Shown piece after piece: positions 35,240 to 59,177 of a stretch of DNA of 64,000 bases. The notes below the pieces were generated by a model. That model was not told the DNA's origin. It saw only the letters and a list, made by a program, of their open reading frames with translations, and ran no database searches. The DNA lies in assembly GCA_963555825.3 (NCBI GenBank), contig CAUVXB020000002.1, positions 1,536,001 to 1,600,000 on the forward strand. The letters are read 5' to 3'. Origin of the DNA: Alphaproteobacteria bacterium (GTDB lineage: Bacteria; Pseudomonadota; Alphaproteobacteria; JAAXGF01). The stretch's first letter is position 1. Every line of letters starts with the position of its first letter. Made by a program: the position numbers and the translations under genes.

Positions 35240-35369
35240 GCTCAAGCCTCGTCCTCGACGTTCGGTCGCCGGACGATAGCACAGCCGCGTGCGCACTGGC
35301 GTGTTTGGGCTGCGCGGCCCCGACACGGCCGCCTTCGCTAGATCATCGAGCGAGGCTTGGATAGCGTCC

Positions 35370-35505
35370 CGGTTTGAAATTCTGCCGAAACGACACCCGA
35401 AACGTCGGCTCATCAGCGGATCATGTCTGCGTTGCACCCAACGGCGGACCCCGTCGCACGGTCCTCGGTACAGTCGCTCCTGACCCGAAGGAAACATTCG
35501 GGGCT
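35370..35505 (+). repeat. ATGTCTGC-type palindromic repeat (family D), left island border
   Basis: Homologous in inverted orientation to 39865-40005 (GCCGAA.CGACACCC, TCATGTCTGCGTTGC.CCCAACGGC.GACC, GACCCGA). Confidence 0.75.
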
Positions 35506-35520
35506 CAACCTAACGCGTGG

Positions 35521-36951
35521 TCAGTTGGCGGCGATCAACTTGTAATAGGTATCCCAGGCCTGAGCCGAATCGAACTCGGCGTAGGCAGCATCGAGCCGTT
35601 GCCGCGAGTCTTCAAGCCGTTGTGCGAGCGCCTTCCGGTCGACGTCCAGCAGACACCCCGCGCGCTTGAGCGGACGGCCGGCGACGAAGACGCTGTCGAC
35701 GTCGCCGCCGTTGGCCTGAAGCACGGCGATCTGCTCGGGCTCGGCGCCCGACATCATGCCAATGCGGTCCGTCGATAACAGTACTACGTCGGCTTGCTTG
35801 CCAGGCGTCAGGCTGCCGATGCGGTCGTCCAGGCGGAGTGCCCGGGCGCCGCCCATGGTGGCGATCTCGAGCATGTCGCGGGCGGTCAGCGCGACGTCGG
35901 TCGGCCCGACGCCCTGGGCGTCCATCGTGCGGGCGCGCGAGCCGCGGCCGACCTTCAGTGTGAACTGCATGTGGCGGAATATGTCGCCCGACAGGCTGCC
36001 GACCGAATCGGCGCCGAGGCCGATCGTCACGCCGTGCTGGATCGCCCGCCAGGTCACTGGATCGGCGCCCTGGCCAAGTTCGCTTTCGGCCGAGACGGCG
36101 ATGCTGACGCCGGTCGCGGCCAGGCGGTCGAGTTCGGTATCGGTGAAGCACTGGCCATGCGAAATCACCAAGTCGGGACCAAGCATGCCATGACGGTCGA
36201 GGCGATCGATGAACCAGGACCCACCGTTAGGCGCCTCCATGCCGGCATGGGTCGTGATCGTCCGGACGCCCAGCTCGCGCGCCAGCCCCAGGTCGTGCTC
36301 TGTGCACGACCAGGGCAGATACTCCAGGTTGCGCGCCGTAACGCCCATGGTGACCAGACCGTCATCGTCCGAGAGCCGGCCGGCGCGAAGCCGCGTGGCT
36401 TCGGTGCGGTGCCAGTCCGTGGTCGGCGACAGGGCTTCCGACAGGGCTTCAGCGGCGATCGCGGTGCCATTTCCGAATTGCGGCGGGCCTCCCAGTCCGT
36501 AGCCAAACACCACCCTGACGCCCGTGGCATCGAGCGCGTCGAGGGCGGCGTCGGCGTGTCCCTCGGCGACGCTGCAGTCAGCGAAGTCGAGCACCGTCGT
36601 CACGCCGGCGTCGAGCGCGTCCAGCGCGCCGGCCAGGGTTGCGATGTGGCGGTCCTCGGCGCTATAGAGCTGGCGTCGGCCCCAGAACGTCTCGACCAGA
36701 TAGCTCGACCAAGTGCCGTCGGAGACGAAACCGCGCAACAGCGTCAACCAGAGGTGCCGGTGGGTGTCGATCAGTCCCGGCATGGCGATCATGCCCTCGC
36801 CATCGATGACCTCGGCGCCGTCCGCGGCAAGCTCAGGGCCGACCGCGGCGATGCGGTCGTCCTCGATCAGGATGTCGGCGCGCGGCAGCGTGCCGAGCGC
36901 GGGATCGACGGTGATGACACAAGCGTCACGGATTAGCATACGTGTCGTCAT
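35521..36951 (-). CDS. Amidohydrolase family protein (deaminase-like)
   Basis: PGLIDTHRH, GVTT, SHG, GLGAD, GSLTPGKQADVV. Confidence 0.92.
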   Translation of the reverse strand: MTTRMLIRDACVITVDPALGTLPRADILIEDDRIAAVGPELAADGAEVIDGEGMIAMPGLIDTHRHLWLTLLRGFVSDGTWSSYLVETFWGRRQLYSAEDRHIATLAGALDALDAGVTTVLDFADCSVAEGHADAALDALDATGVRVVFGYGLGGPPQFGNGTAIAAEALSEALSPTTDWHRTEATRLRAGRLSDDDGLVTMGVTARNLEYLPWSCTEHDLGLARELGVRTITTHAGMEAPNGGSWFIDRLDRHGMLGPDLVISHGQCFTDTELDRLAATGVSIAVSAESELGQGADPVTWRAIQHGVTIGLGADSVGSLSGDIFRHMQFTLKVGRGSRARTMDAQGVGPTDVALTARDMLEIATMGGARALRLDDRIGSLTPGKQADVVLLSTDRIGMMSGAEPEQIAVLQANGGDVDSVFVAGRPLKRAGCLLDVDRKALAQRLEDSRQRLDAAYAEFDSAQAWDTYYKLIAAN

Positions 36952-37134
36952 GGTTCAGCCCACTTGAGTACGGCAGCAAATCTCCAAACCGACATTCCCC
37001 TGCCGACTCCTCAGAATGCGCACGTCGGCAGCCGAAGATGGCGTCTTGGGGAGTATTGAAACGAGTTTCTGCCCACAGGGTAGAGGATTTGCAGCGAGAC
37101 TTGAATGTCCTGTGTGGATGGCTCCCGCGTTGCA

Positions 37135-37370
37135 AGGACTTTTTTCGGCGTAGCGACCTAGTCAGGTACAGTCTTGTGTCCGGCCTGTTGATGCAGTTTT
37201 GTTGAACCGCTGGCCCTGATGGTATCCGTGGATCGGGTCCCTATCTGCTTAGCGGGCTCGAACACCCAGGACATTGGTCGGGTTGTCCCGATCCCCGGTC
37301 TGACCGGTTCGCCATCACGTCTCGTCGTCCTTGCAATCGTCGAAAGGCGTTGTGCCTTCGAGAGATCAAT
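37135..37370 (-). ncRNA. Putative bridge RNA / seekRNA of the IS1111 element (ends approximate)
   Basis: Non-coding region 3' of the recombinase with AATGTC, AAGCAGA, CCATC and ACACAAGA segments matching target and donor halves. Confidence 0.7.
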
Positions 37371-37373
37371 TCG

Positions 37374-38408
37374 TCATGCGGTCCCCTCAGTTGCGGGTCG
37401 GTGAGCGCGGTAGGCCTCGCCACGAGTCATGATGACCCAGGCGATCCGCGCGGCCTTGTTGGCCATGGCCACGGCGACCAGCTTGTTGGGCTTGCTTACC
37501 AGCAAGTTGGTGATCCAGGGGTGAACCTCGGGCTTGCGCCGTGCCGATTGAAGCTGTGATGTCATGCCGATCACCAGCAGACGGCGAAGATAGCGGTCCG
37601 CCATCTTGGAGATGCGTCCCATGCGATCCTTGCCGGCGCTGGAATCGGCCTTGGGCGTTAGCCCGAGCGAGGCGGCAAACTGGCGAGCCGATGTGAACCG
37701 GTGCGGATCGGTGACCGAGGCTGCCAGCGCCGAGGCGGTGATGTAACCAATCCCCGGAATGGTCGCGAGCCGTTTGGCCAGGTCGTTGCCGCGGAACCAG
37801 GTCTTGATCTCGCCCTCGATCATGGCGACCCGGGCTTGCAACTCGCGGATCTGCTCGGCCAGGGCAATGACGATCTTGCATGCCAGCGGGGGAATGTCCG
37901 GCACCACTCCTTCGACAAGCTGATCGACGAGCCTCAGCGCGTGATGAATGCCTTTGGCCAGCACGATGCCCAACTCGGCCAGCTGGGACCGGATCATGTT
38001 GACCAGCTGGGTGCGCTGGCCGACCAGCAGATCCCGTGTTCGGTGGAGCGCCAGGACCGATTGCTGCTCGGCCGACTTGATCGCGACGAACCGCATCGTG
38101 GGGCGCGTCACCGCCTCGCAGATCGCCTCCGCATCGGCGGCGTCGGTCTTGCCGCGCTTGACGTATGGTTTGACGTAGATCGGTGGCATCAATTTCACCT
38201 CGTGCCCCAATGCCTGGAGCTCGCGGGACCAGAAGTGGCTCGTGCCGCACGCCTCGATACCGATCAGACACGGTTCCAGCTTGCCGAAGAACGGCATCAT
38301 CTGGCGCCGGCGCAACGATCGGCGGACGATGACCTTGCCGGTGCTGTCAATGCCGTGGACTTGGAAAACGTTCTTGGCCAGATCGAGGCCGACAGTGGTT
38401 ACTTTCAT
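37374..38408 (-). CDS. IS110 family DEDD recombinase/transposase
   Basis: GLDLAK, IEAC, KTDAADAEA, IPGIG, SSAGK; intact ORF. Confidence 0.96.
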   Translation of the reverse strand: MKVTTVGLDLAKNVFQVHGIDSTGKVIVRRSLRRRQMMPFFGKLEPCLIGIEACGTSHFWSRELQALGHEVKLMPPIYVKPYVKRGKTDAADAEAICEAVTRPTMRFVAIKSAEQQSVLALHRTRDLLVGQRTQLVNMIRSQLAELGIVLAKGIHHALRLVDQLVEGVVPDIPPLACKIVIALAEQIRELQARVAMIEGEIKTWFRGNDLAKRLATIPGIGYITASALAASVTDPHRFTSARQFAASLGLTPKADSSAGKDRMGRISKMADRYLRRLLVIGMTSQLQSARRKPEVHPWITNLLVSKPNKLVAVAMANKAARIAWVIMTRGEAYRAHRPATEGTA

Positions 38409-38656
38409 GGCGGATAGCTCCTCTTGCTCGTGGTTGATAACAACCACCACTTTGGCATCTCGGTGCCGGGAGCGGGAGCCATCCACCCCATCTGCTAGTG
38501 GGGGCAAAGTGAAAGGTGTTTGGCGGCGGCCCCGACTCCTGGTGTCAGCCAATTCTGGACCTTCACGTCTGGTCGTTAGACTCGCCTAGCCACGTTCCAT
38601 ATACTGCAGCCCACAACCAAAACGTTTCGGGGGAGGTTCTGGTGCCGCGACCGGGC

Positions 38657-39247
38657 ATGCTGGTCCATCTCGTTGACGTGGCCAATCTGATCACTCTTGG
38701 CGGCCTCGCGCTTGCTTTCTTCGCCTGCTGGGCGGTCTTGTCGGGACGGCCCTCCTTGGCCATGGCCCTGGCCGCGTCGGCCGTCGTCATCGATAATGTG
38801 GACGGCTGGATGGCGCGGCGGGCAGTGGGGCGAAACCCGGCGCATGAGCATTTCGGGCGGCACTTGGATTGTTATGCGGACTACATCACCAAAGGCTTAT
38901 TTCCCGTCCTGTATCTTTTGACCGCGACCGATTTGCAGCTCGTGTCTGTCCCGGTGGCGCTGATCTACCTGATGGCGATTGCCGTCCGATATAGTTATGA
39001 GTTCGTGCCGGACCGCGCCCATATCGGTCTTTCGCCCGACTACATGATCGCCTTCCTCTGTCTGTTGCAGTTGGCGGCGCCACGAATCGGTTCGGCCTTC
39101 ATTCCCACGCTCATGGCGGGCCTGGTGGGTTTTGCGGCTCTCGCCGTCGCGCCTTTTCCGTCACCGAAGTTGCAGGGCGGGCCCCTCGTCGGTTTTTGCC
39201 TCTTTCTTCTGGTCCTGGCGGCGGTCCTTTTGACCGGCGATCGATAG
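38657..39247 (+). CDS. CDP-alcohol phosphatidyltransferase family protein
   Basis: ANLIT, DNVDGWMAR...G..LD..AD signature; multiple TM helices. Confidence 0.88.
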   Translation: MLVHLVDVANLITLGGLALAFFACWAVLSGRPSLAMALAASAVVIDNVDGWMARRAVGRNPAHEHFGRHLDCYADYITKGLFPVLYLLTATDLQLVSVPVALIYLMAIAVRYSYEFVPDRAHIGLSPDYMIAFLCLLQLAAPRIGSAFIPTLMAGLVGFAALAVAPFPSPKLQGGPLVGFCLFLLVLAAVLLTGDR

Positions 39248-39864: not shown

Positions 39865-40005
39865 AGGTTTCGCCAATGGCCGCCTCGGGTCGACAGCCGG
39901 AGTGCCGACGGCCCCGCGCCAAGGTCTGCCGTTGGGCGCAACGCAGACATGACCCGGCGAAAAGCGGACGTCCTGGGTGTCGGTTCGGCGGGATGCCAAA
40001 CCAGG
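39865..40005 (-). repeat. ATGTCTGC-type repeat (family D), right island border
   Basis: Inverted homologue of 35370-35505; GCAGACAT at 39943-39950. Confidence 0.75.
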
Positions 40006-40081
40006 ACTCCGGCCGAATTCGGTTGCATTCGCCGGCGTTGGTCGCGAGGATTCGGCCAGTGCAGTTTGCGGGGGTCGGCCC

Positions 40082-57523: not shown

Positions 57524-59177
57524 GGGTGTGGGTCTGTTATGGAAAATCTCAGTCATTGATTTAGTGCGTTTTTTGTGTCGAGACGAACGGCCGAAATCGG
57601 CTATTCGTGACAATGGGCCGCTCCAAGGCAGGATTTTGTTACGACGGCAGGGTCGAGCAGGGGAAGGTGGGAACGCTCCGCACCGCCAGAAGCGGTACGA
57701 TGCCGTGTCTCGAAACCCAACATCGGGAGCATTCCCATGGCAGTATCCCCGCCTCCGGCGCCTTCGTCCATCGATCTTTCCGGCCTGCCTCCTCGGGTCG
57801 TCGAGGCGGCCGCCCGGGTGCTCGCACTGTGTCGCGAGGAGCTTCGTTCCGAGCCGCGCCCCGAGGCGCCCGAGGAGGTCGAGTTGCGGGTGCGTGAGGC
57901 CACGAACGAGTTCGCTCGCGATGTCATGGGCGCCGTCATCGAGAACCGGGACGATGGCGCTTCCCGGATCGAGCGGGACGGGCAGAGCTGGTTCCGGGTC
58001 GCGGTGACGCCGAAGACGATCATGACCTCGCTCGGTCCGGTGACCTACCGGCGAGCGCGTTACCGCAGCGGCGCGAGCGGGGCATCGCCGGTGCCGGTCG
58101 ACGAGAGCCTGGGCCTCGTCGACGATTACCTGACGCGGCCGGCGGCCGAGCTCGGTCTGCTGATGATGGGTCACTGCACGGCCCGGGAAGCGGCGGCGTT
58201 CTTTGCGAAGACCGGCGCCATGACGCCGTCGGTGAGCACCCTGCAGCGCCTGACCCTGAGCATGCACGAATGCTGGGAGAGCCTCGGCCCGGAGACGCTG
58301 GGCAGCATCCGTGAGGCCGAGGGCATACCGCAGGACGCGACCACCGCCTCGGTCTCCCTCGACGGCGTCATGGTGCCGCTGAGACCCGGCGAGGACGGTC
58401 GCGCCAAGGCCTCCTGGCGCGAGGCTGCCTGCGGCACGGTCTCCTTCCACGACGCCGAGGGCAAGCGCCTGAAGACCCTCTATCTCGGCCGCATGCCGGA
58501 GAGCGGCAAGCTCACGCTGAAGGCGCAGCTTGCAAGCGAAGTCGCACACATCAGGCGAGCACGCCCCGAGATCGGGATCGTCGCTATCGCCGATGGCGCC
58601 GCCGACAACTGGACCTTCCTGGAGACCCTGTCGCCCGAAACCGAGGTGATCGACTTCTGGCATGCTTGCGAACATCTGCAAACCGCGTCCGACCATGCCG
58701 TGGCGCCCGGCTGGTTCGAGAAGTACCGCGAGATCCTCCGTCACGATCCCCGTGGCGTCGCCAAGGTGATCCGGGCGCTGCGCCACCTTCGCGATGCCGC
58801 CGCTGCGCCGGACCGGGCCGAGACCGAGCGGGAACTCGCCTTCTTCCGCAAGCATCGCCATCGCATGCGCTACCACGCCCTGAAGGAAGAGGGCATCGCC
58901 ATCGGCTCAGGCGTGGTCGAAGCTGCCAACAAGACCCTGGTGACACAGCGCATGAAGCGCTCCGGCATGCGCTGGCGGATCGTCGGCGGACAGGCTGTTC
59001 TGACCTTCCGCGCCCTGATCAAATCCGGCCGCTTCGAGCGGGCATGGAAGGCCCTGATCAGCGCAACCGACACACCGGCCAACGACAACATCAGTCCACG
59101 TGCAGCAGCCATGGCAATCGCTGCCTGAACTCAACGAACCAAGCCGCAGACATCACTGCCATGCGAGACTCGCACCC
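57524..59177 (+). mobile_element. ISKra4-like element
   Basis: TIRs GGGTGTGGGTCT / AGACTCGCACCC; 8-bp TSD GTCGCGTA at 57516-57523 and 59178-59185. Confidence 0.92.
57737..59128 (+). CDS. ISKra4-like (UPF0236-type) transposase
   Basis: SLDGVMV, ADGAADNW, DFWHACEHL, IGSGVVEAANK, RMKRSGMRW. Confidence 0.9.
   Translation: MAVSPPPAPSSIDLSGLPPRVVEAAARVLALCREELRSEPRPEAPEEVELRVREATNEFARDVMGAVIENRDDGASRIERDGQSWFRVAVTPKTIMTSLGPVTYRRARYRSGASGASPVPVDESLGLVDDYLTRPAAELGLLMMGHCTAREAAAFFAKTGAMTPSVSTLQRLTLSMHECWESLGPETLGSIREAEGIPQDATTASVSLDGVMVPLRPGEDGRAKASWREAACGTVSFHDAEGKRLKTLYLGRMPESGKLTLKAQLASEVAHIRRARPEIGIVAIADGAADNWTFLETLSPETEVIDFWHACEHLQTASDHAVAPGWFEKYREILRHDPRGVAKVIRALRHLRDAAAAPDRAETERELAFFRKHRHRMRYHALKEEGIAIGSGVVEAANKTLVTQRMKRSGMRWRIVGGQAVLTFRALIKSGRFERAWKALISATDTPANDNISPRAAAMAIAA

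Follow-up and report, generated by a model that had tools for sequence, protein, structure and literature searches.

An IS1111-type insertion sequence whose right end encodes a predicted guide RNA matching its insertion sites

The stretch of DNA analysed here (the window) comprises 64,000 nucleotides of an alphaproteobacterial genome (contig CAUVXB020000002.1, positions 1,536,001 to 1,600,000) and contains on its minus strand an insertion sequence (IS) with a long non-coding region downstream of its transposase gene. Four short motifs in this region resemble the element's ends and the sequences flanking it. Are these motifs the guides of an RNA that directs the transposase, and which host sequence do they specify? 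An earlier note, made from the sequence of the window, had proposed that they are bridge RNA guides of an intact IS1111 element and that they point at a host repeat, family D. Bridge or seek RNAs of IS1111 elements were published in 2024 (PMC11187229, PMC11208160). Our analysis makes it very probable that this is an IS110-family element of the IS1111 type whose transposase is guided by an RNA encoded in the right end, whereas the repeat family did not hold as the target in the form proposed.

Guides and insertion sites

The host genome (6.04 Mb, two contigs) contains five full copies of the element at four independent sites, with an identity of 99.2-100%. The fourth and fifth copies (C2:2721582-2722963 and 3616755-3618136) have identical flanks on both sides and opposite orientation, which indicates a segmental duplication; because the long flanks are shared, these two copies were counted as one insertion event. 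The junctions AATGTC-CTGTGT (37104-37115) and CCCCA-TC-TGCTAG (38486-38498) are both present in the window as given in the earlier note. Its coordinates for the element, 37108-38492, close, except that a start at 37108 takes in the second copy of the 2-bp core, the element itself being 37110-38492 (Table 1). In the orientation of the gene, the flanks are ..ctAGCA-GA[IS]GA-CATTcaag for the window copy, ..gaAGCA-GA[IS]GA-CATTgggg for the second copy, ..taAGCA-GA[IS]GA-CATTcgag for the third copy and ..ttACA-GA[IS]GA-CATTcggg for the fourth and fifth copies. AGCA-GA-CATT is common to three of the four independent sites, and GA is found at both junctions in all five copies and in most of the parsed relatives.

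The right end contains on the minus strand, in the order previously noted, AATGTC (37275-37270), AAGCAGA (37250-37244), CCATC (37222-37218) and ACACAAGA (37179-37172). Single motifs are weak: after shuffling of the 264-nt right end, they are still present in 3.7%, 35%, 24% and 20% of cases, respectively. All four in order were found in one of 100,000 such shuffles and, among 100,000 random windows of the genome with the element's own copies left in, in 14. Compared with the copies in the genome, the left guide UAAGCAGA is free of mismatches against the left flanks of two of the five copies (AAGCAGA), and ACACAAGA is identical to the right end in three of the five.

Relatives were taken from a scan of one genome per species (n = 526), from which the best 80 of 526 were kept (61-92% protein identity, mostly Alphaproteobacteria); the ends could be parsed in 70 of these best 80 and in the window copy. 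Left out of the covariation count were two loci with irregular right junctions (L036 and L065), one locus with a left end lacking a target-like boundary (L083), and loci cut by contig ends. Each distinct guide-flank pair was counted once. The usual site of the relatives is ..AAGCA-GA[IS]GA-C.., and its variation is mirrored in the RNA. Left flanks TCAACA, TAACCA, ATAACA, AAAACA, TTAGCA, AGAGCA and TGAGTA each recur with identical letters in the respective RNA; right flanks GACGTT, GACATC, GACATG and GACCTT stand opposite AACGUC, GAUGUC, CAUGUC and AAGGUC, and right flanks GACTAG, GACTCT, GACAGG and GACGTA opposite CUAGUC, AGAGUC, CCUGUC and UACGUC. Examples of such co-change are TCAACAGA, TAACCAGA, TGAGTAGA, CTAGTC and AGAGTC.

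Left guide and left flank agree at 119 of 132 positions in 22 unique pairs (shuffle mean 92) and are identical over 5 nt in 18 of them. For the right guide and the right flank there are 27 unique pairs, with agreement at 83 of 108 positions (shuffle mean 58) and a perfect match over 4 nt in nine. For neither target guide did any of 10,000 shuffles, which ignore the relatedness of the sequences, reach the observed match. The guides also match other insertions of the element, although imperfectly. The roles assigned to the four motifs in the earlier note (target-left, target-right, donor-left and donor-right) are supported by this covariation, by the other insertions and by the positions of the motifs in the loops described below.

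This case confirms that an IS1111-type element's guide code is legible in raw sequence, and the approximately 70 relatives with their unique pairs form a natural series in which the choice of target and the RNA have drifted together. The series can serve the annotation of elements and the prediction of insertion sites (here an arm of a palindrome resembling repetitive extragenic palindromes, REP), and provides natural variants for bridge-recombinase engineers. At one of the excluded loci, L036, the sequence GACGTAA, which is predicted by the right guide, is found 14 nt past the apparent right end.

Structure of the predicted RNA

The structure of 58 distinct homologous right ends (alignment A1) was predicted using RNAalifold, and counts were then made on the specified structure. 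It comprises eight helices, in which 98.1% of the cells are paired; shuffling gives 94.1% and sliding of the partners 21-44%. Both sides are changed in ten pairs (112 cells), and none of 500 shuffles reached the observed paired and compensatory values. One internal loop, bounded by the basal stem and the distal hairpin, contains the two target guides, one on each strand, and the donor guides are placed likewise in a second loop, so that all four fall outside the stems, as the earlier note had anticipated. The geometry of both loops is parallel: a gap of 2 nt separates the end of the 5' guide from the distal stem, and one of 0-1 nt separates the end of the 3' guide from the basal stem. G-U pairs are frequent on the minus strand (for example, in 53 and 39 sequences at two pairs); on the opposite strand they are A-C, which fits an RNA in the sense of the transposase gene.

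The four motifs might instead act as DNA, either as internal copies of ends and target that are read directly by the protein or as leftovers of earlier recombination inside the right end. This would agree with the fact that a guide of the same sense necessarily duplicates, at the DNA level, the end that it reads, and with the tandem duplication of right-end modules in one sister family and three solo fragments (both described below). However, the helices around the motifs are kept by compensatory and G-U changes, which are sensible only for a single strand of one polarity, and in relatives the RNA from the right-end region is reported to co-purify with the transposase and to be required (PMC11187229). 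We regard an action as DNA as extremely improbable.

In the mechanism that we propose, transcription of the long right end would first yield an RNA with the polarity of the transposase gene. In its first loop, AAUGUC on the 5' strand would pair with the top strand of the core and the right target, GA-CATT, and UAAGCAGA on the 3' strand with the bottom strand of the left target and the core, TAAGCA-GA. In the second loop, the partner of CCAUC would be the first bases of the left end, GA-TGG, and that of ACACAAGA the right end together with the core; this loop would read both strands of the circle junction ACACA(A/G)-GA-TGGGGT. The RNA would join the circle junction (right end-GA-left end) to the target AAGCA-GA-CATT, and the transposase would exchange strands at GA. 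That the RNA is made, bound by the transposase and required is inferred by analogy with the published systems IS621, ISEc11, ISPa11 and ISKpn4.

The second loop deserves separate consideration, as the first stem-loop might function alone as a target-seeking RNA of about 80-100 nt, the donor loop being a scaffold with fortuitous matches to the ends. CCAUC is indeed short and invariant, the seekRNA study describes target matches in RNAs of 82-96 nt (PMC11187229), and the donor guide is unlike the right end at the base beside the core in 43 of 68 elements. On the other hand, the donor guide, ACACA or ACAGA, follows the element's own right end in 67 of the 68 elements; the remaining one differs at the second base of the guide, and the C or G at the fourth base is never discordant. 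Guide-to-stem spacing is alike in both loops, the core variant GT of one element (L102, from a Tardiphaga metagenome-assembled genome) occurs in both guide and right end, and loops that bind the donor are reported for the right ends of IS1111 elements by Durrant et al. (PMC11208160). Function of the first stem-loop alone is therefore considered very unlikely.

Two observations concern the core and the base next to it. In the 43 elements mentioned, the right-end base beside the core is G while the donor guide has A; within the window genome, the base beside the right-end core (37110) is G in two copies and A in three. In L102, the core reads GT at the right junction and in three of the four guides, but GA at the left junction and in the left-end guide.

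Several points weigh against an RNA-guided element of the kind proposed. As the earlier note had seen, the left guide and the donor guide of the window copy each contain a single mismatch; both vanish in sister copies. The site of the fourth and fifth copies, ttACA-GA-CATT, fits the left guide only in CA-GA, and their right guide is AACGUC in place of AAUGUC although the flank is GACATT. Among the relatives, 18 of the 27 unique right pairs have at least one mismatch, in addition to the blindness of the shuffles to relatedness. CCAUC has only 5 nt and does not vary in the relatives, so that covariation cannot probe it and its putative role is suggested by geometry. When the window sequence is folded singly, three bases of each target guide pair together, and the z-score is only -2.4; such pairing is expected because both target guides read the same core from opposite strands, and since the single fold is ambiguous by itself, we relied on the comparative structure. 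Rfam gave no match in 36900-38700 at E values up to 1 and none in the whole window at the gathering score, and a scan of 37000-38600 gave no sigma-70-like promoter and no intrinsic terminator. Finally, Ser257-Ala258 (in GLTPKADSSA; codons 37640-37635, minus strand) of the transposase replaces the Ser-Gly of the motif GL-P----S/T-G; present-day activity is uncertain because all five copies have Ser-Ala compared with Ser-Gly in 80 of 80 relatives.

Contigs from four metatranscriptome runs of four studies cover most of the element, including 37144-37326, with at least 90% likeness. These contigs are assembled from mixed organisms, are blind to strand, ends and level, and may reflect carry-over of DNA; they were counted as evidence neither way.

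Table 1. Features of the element in the window (positions are those of the window; sequences in the sense of the transposase gene).
Feature	Position	Strand	Basis or remark
Whole IS	37110..38492	-	1383 bp, 2-bp core counted once; five copies end exactly there
Core GA (TC on the plus strand), left-end junction	38491..38492	-	both junctions, 5/5 copies
Core and left terminal extension, GA-TGGGGT	38485..38492	-	copies and relatives compared
Left subterminal inverted repeat, GTGGATGGCTCCCGC	38472..38486	-	perfect 15-nt inverted repeat with 37114-37128
Transposase gene, 344 aa and stop	37374..38408	-	PF01548, PF02371, NF033542
Non-coding right end, 264 nt, encoding the predicted bridge/seek RNA	37110..37373	-	comparative structure, folding
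Conserved hairpin CCGGUCAGACCGG, immediately 5' to the target-binding stem-loop	37295..37307	-	A1 columns 33-46, 99% paired, no compensatory change
Predicted target-binding stem-loop: basal GGAUCGGG/CCCGAUCC, inner CCC/GGG, internal loop, distal hairpin GGGU..GCCC	37230..37294	-	compensatory changes in 8/15 pairs
5' target guide AAUGUC	37270..37275	-	reverse complement of core and right flank, GACATT
3' target guide UAAGCAGA	37244..37251	-	same sense as left flank and core
Predicted donor-binding stem-loop: basal ACGG/CUGU, internal loop, inner GGCC/GGCC and GCGG/CUGC	37168..37229	-	helices 6-8
5' donor guide CCAUC	37218..37222	-	reverse complement of left-end start, GATGG
3' donor guide ACACAAGA	37172..37179	-	same sense as right end and core
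Right subterminal inverted repeat, GCGGGAGCCATCCAC	37114..37128	-	kept in most relatives
Right terminal extension and core, ACACAG-GA	37110..37117	-	copies and relatives compared
Core GA (TC on the plus strand), repeated beyond the right end	37108..37109	-	junction sequence

The target in the host genome

The proposal that the element is programmed for repeat family D was based on the occurrence of ATGTCTGC in the repeats bordering the region. This sequence is found at 35423 (plus strand) and 39943 (minus strand), and also at 59146 (minus strand), that is, three times compared with 1.77 expected; as 23 of 100 shuffles gave at least three matches, the count by itself does not exceed chance. The sites at 35423 and 39943 occupy homologous places in an inverted repeat of 123 nt, one in each arm (35366-35488 and 39885-40007). 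The family D repeat is intergenic and about 140 nt long, and two inverted copies of it, 4.4 kb apart, lie around the element and neighbouring genes. Twenty-seven copies were found in the genome by nhmmer; they are a mosaic of REP-like hairpins, and the search of 35300-35560 gave no Rfam match.

None of the 27 copies of family D abuts a copy of the element, the nearest being 84 nt away, and the flanks of the window copy are unique in the genome. The central hairpin of family D contains only GCAGACAT, 8 of the 11 target bases. With no copy occupied and the target incomplete, family D was rejected as the target in the form proposed. What stands of this claim is that the guides spell an arm of a REP-like hairpin contained in family D. 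This palindrome, GTCYGC-N13-GCRGAC, has 37 copies in the genome compared with at most five at any other spacing from 3 to 25, and family D holds two hairpins of this type. AAGCAGACATT is found unoccupied in the genome four times, while 0.6 occurrences are expected.

In a search of 30 related genomes with 36500-39100, no contig spanned both flanks, and clear orthologues were found for the right flank only. In one of these genomes (G001, same family, other genus), an uninterrupted AATGTCTGCT hairpin lies beside the orthologous right flank; the sequence ..CCGAATGTCTGCTTTCGGGGTAATAGCGGGCG.. has AATG-TC-TGCT precisely at the position of the element. The other orthologue of the right flank (G010) is not alignable at the insertion point. 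Among the distinct sites of the relatives, the exact arm GTCYGC is present 10-30 nt upstream in 8 of 53, compared with 5 of 53 in the corresponding window of the right flank, so the association with the palindrome appears to be real but loose. These sequence comparisons suggest one arm of the host REP-like palindrome as the preferred target.

IS621 is said to insert in REP sequences, an observation ascribed to Choi et al. 2003. ISPpu9 and ISPpu10 of Pseudomonas putida are likewise described as IS110-family elements in repetitive extragenic palindromes, with solo modules of the downstream RNA elsewhere in the genome (Pares-Guillen et al. 2025, PMC12288879). In contrast to these, the solo right-end fragments of the genome studied here are truncated copies with a 42-bp duplication. 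The downstream RNA of ISPpu9 is reported in that work to be dispensable for transposition. Three right-end-only fragments were identified here (C1:945995-946515, 1262874-1263401 and 1714257-1714793); they start inside the transposase gene, and in all three the 42-bp tandem duplication lies in the target-binding loop, so that the 5' guide and the hairpin are each present twice. One fragment of the left end of the same element is located at C1:941229-941669.

Transposase and related elements

The transposase has 344 amino acids, within the range of 330-350 typical of IS1111. Its N-terminal part matches PF01548 (DEDD, RuvC-like; 61.4 bits, residues 6-145) and its C-terminal domain PF02371 (81.2 bits), and the NCBIfam model NF033542, 'IS110 family RNA-guided transposase', scores 325 bits with a cut-off of 140. 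The C-terminal domain also matches the structures of the IS621 and ISCro4 recombinases in the PDB. The motifs GLDLAK (residues 7-12), GIEACG (residues 50-55) and KTDAADA (residues 87-93) contain the putative DEDD catalytic residues.

Subterminal repeats, protein length and a long downstream non-coding region are described as setting IS1111 apart from IS110 proper (PMC11187229, PMC11208160). Here the non-coding stretch is 264 nt on the 3' side of the transposase gene compared with 84 nt on the 5' side. The 15-bp inverted repeats are perfect, and each is inset from the end of the element by 6 nt and the core; in the sense of the gene, the order is GA, TGGGGT, left repeat, 84-nt leader, ORF of 344 codons, 264-nt right end, right repeat, ACACAG and GA. 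With the DEDD transposase and the GA core, these traits bear out the earlier assignment to IS1111. For 93% of IS1111 elements, Durrant et al. predicted a bridge RNA in the right end (PMC11208160). The order of guides, with the match to the top strand first in IS1111 and reversed in IS110 according to PMC11187229, is of the IS1111 type, AAUGUC preceding AAGCAGA and CCAUC preceding ACACAAGA.

Among described systems, ISEc11, ISPa11, ISKpn4 and ISPst6 (Siddiquee et al. 2024, PMC11187229) share with this element the subterminal repeats, a transposase of 330-350 aa, the long downstream non-coding region, and two short matches to both target strands with the top strand first. They differ from it in the target, which is AAGCA-GA-CATT here, and in having Ser/Thr-Gly in place of Ser-Ala; moreover, the RNA of the element studied here is predicted. 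Similarity to IS621 (Durrant et al. 2024, PMC11208160; 8WT6 and other structures) consists in an internal loop for the target and another for the donor, in each of which both strands around a 2-nt core are read, with a short guide on the other side of the core. Unlike in IS621, where the RNA is in the left end, it is located here in the right end, the guides within a loop follow the reverse order and the inverted repeats are long; by sequence, similarity to IS621 is detectable only in the C-terminal domain (E = 1.5e-9). A plasmid collection contained no close named relative, the best full-length match being 70.1% identical and annotated only as 'IS110 family transposase'. The element is a new IS1111-type member of the published class of bridge/seek RNA systems, and knowledge of the mechanism is unchanged by it.

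The earlier note had described the system as intact. This holds for the ORF and the ends, both of which are whole; in the lineage of the window copy, however, the Ser-Gly of the catalytic motif is Ser-Ala. The change is confined to this lineage (1 of 81 sequences), and the two codons are untouched by the bases that differ among the five copies. The copies could thus be recently inactivated relics, with anatomy and RNA code as described and a transposase crippled by the change from Gly to Ala beside the catalytic Ser. Such a reading agrees with the conservation of Ser-Gly in the relatives, with the sparing of both codons by the copy differences, with the four perfect AAGCAGACATT sites still being unoccupied, and with the SG pair being reported as required for Piv inversion (PMC11187229). 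We consider it unlikely, as Ser-Ala is common to all five copies, which occupy four independent sites and are separated by 8-12 differences; because diverged copies at four independent sites share the change, the spread most simply occurred after it. Thr-Ala is found occasionally in natural IS1111 transposases (PMC11187229), and the genome contains no other transposase of the window type that could mobilise the copies, the next families having approximately 57% identical transposases and different inverted repeats. Since four independent insertions all carry the change, Ser-Ala is probably tolerated, and an RNA-guided element remains the preferred reading.

A further thought, which is quite doubtful, is that conserved imperfections of the RNA code and the Ser-Ala pair are functional settings, for example mismatches biasing insertion over excision or a tolerated variant of the active site. 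The imperfections noted are the donor-guide A against the right-end G in 43 of 68 elements and the split second base of the core, GT/GA in L102 and GA/GG in sister family B. If they were functional, they would newly inform the control of direction and fidelity in IS1111-type bridge recombinases.

Nearly all relatives have the conserved hexamer TTGCAA 17 nt ahead of the right-end core (37124-37135, minus strand; A1 columns 215-220). It could be the -35 box of a promoter at the circle junction; the matching -10 sequence, CAGGAT, would be weak. A circle-junction promoter has reportedly been described for ISEc11.

IS110-family elements abound in the genome: by tblastn with the window transposase, at least six further groups were found at 28-57% identity, one of them with 13 copies. 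Sister family B is of the IS1111 type, has approximately 57% protein identity and is present in seven copies (for example, L025, C2:2096599-2099400, and L030, C1:169786-171414). After it come its own right-end modules in tandem arrays, with units of 296 nt (3.3 copies), 134/138 nt (two to three copies), 94 nt (three copies) and 24-26 nt. The idea that the DNA of the same-sense donor guide serves as a pseudo right end and generates these arrays was dropped because the periods of 94, 134/138 and 296 nt differ from the guide-to-end distance of 66 nt (counted by eye). In the alignment read by eye, the left guide of family B, GCUUAUGA, fits the flank GCTTAT-GA, and its right guide, AUAGCC, fits GG-CTAT; family B appears to target the other arm and the loop of the same REP-like hairpin.

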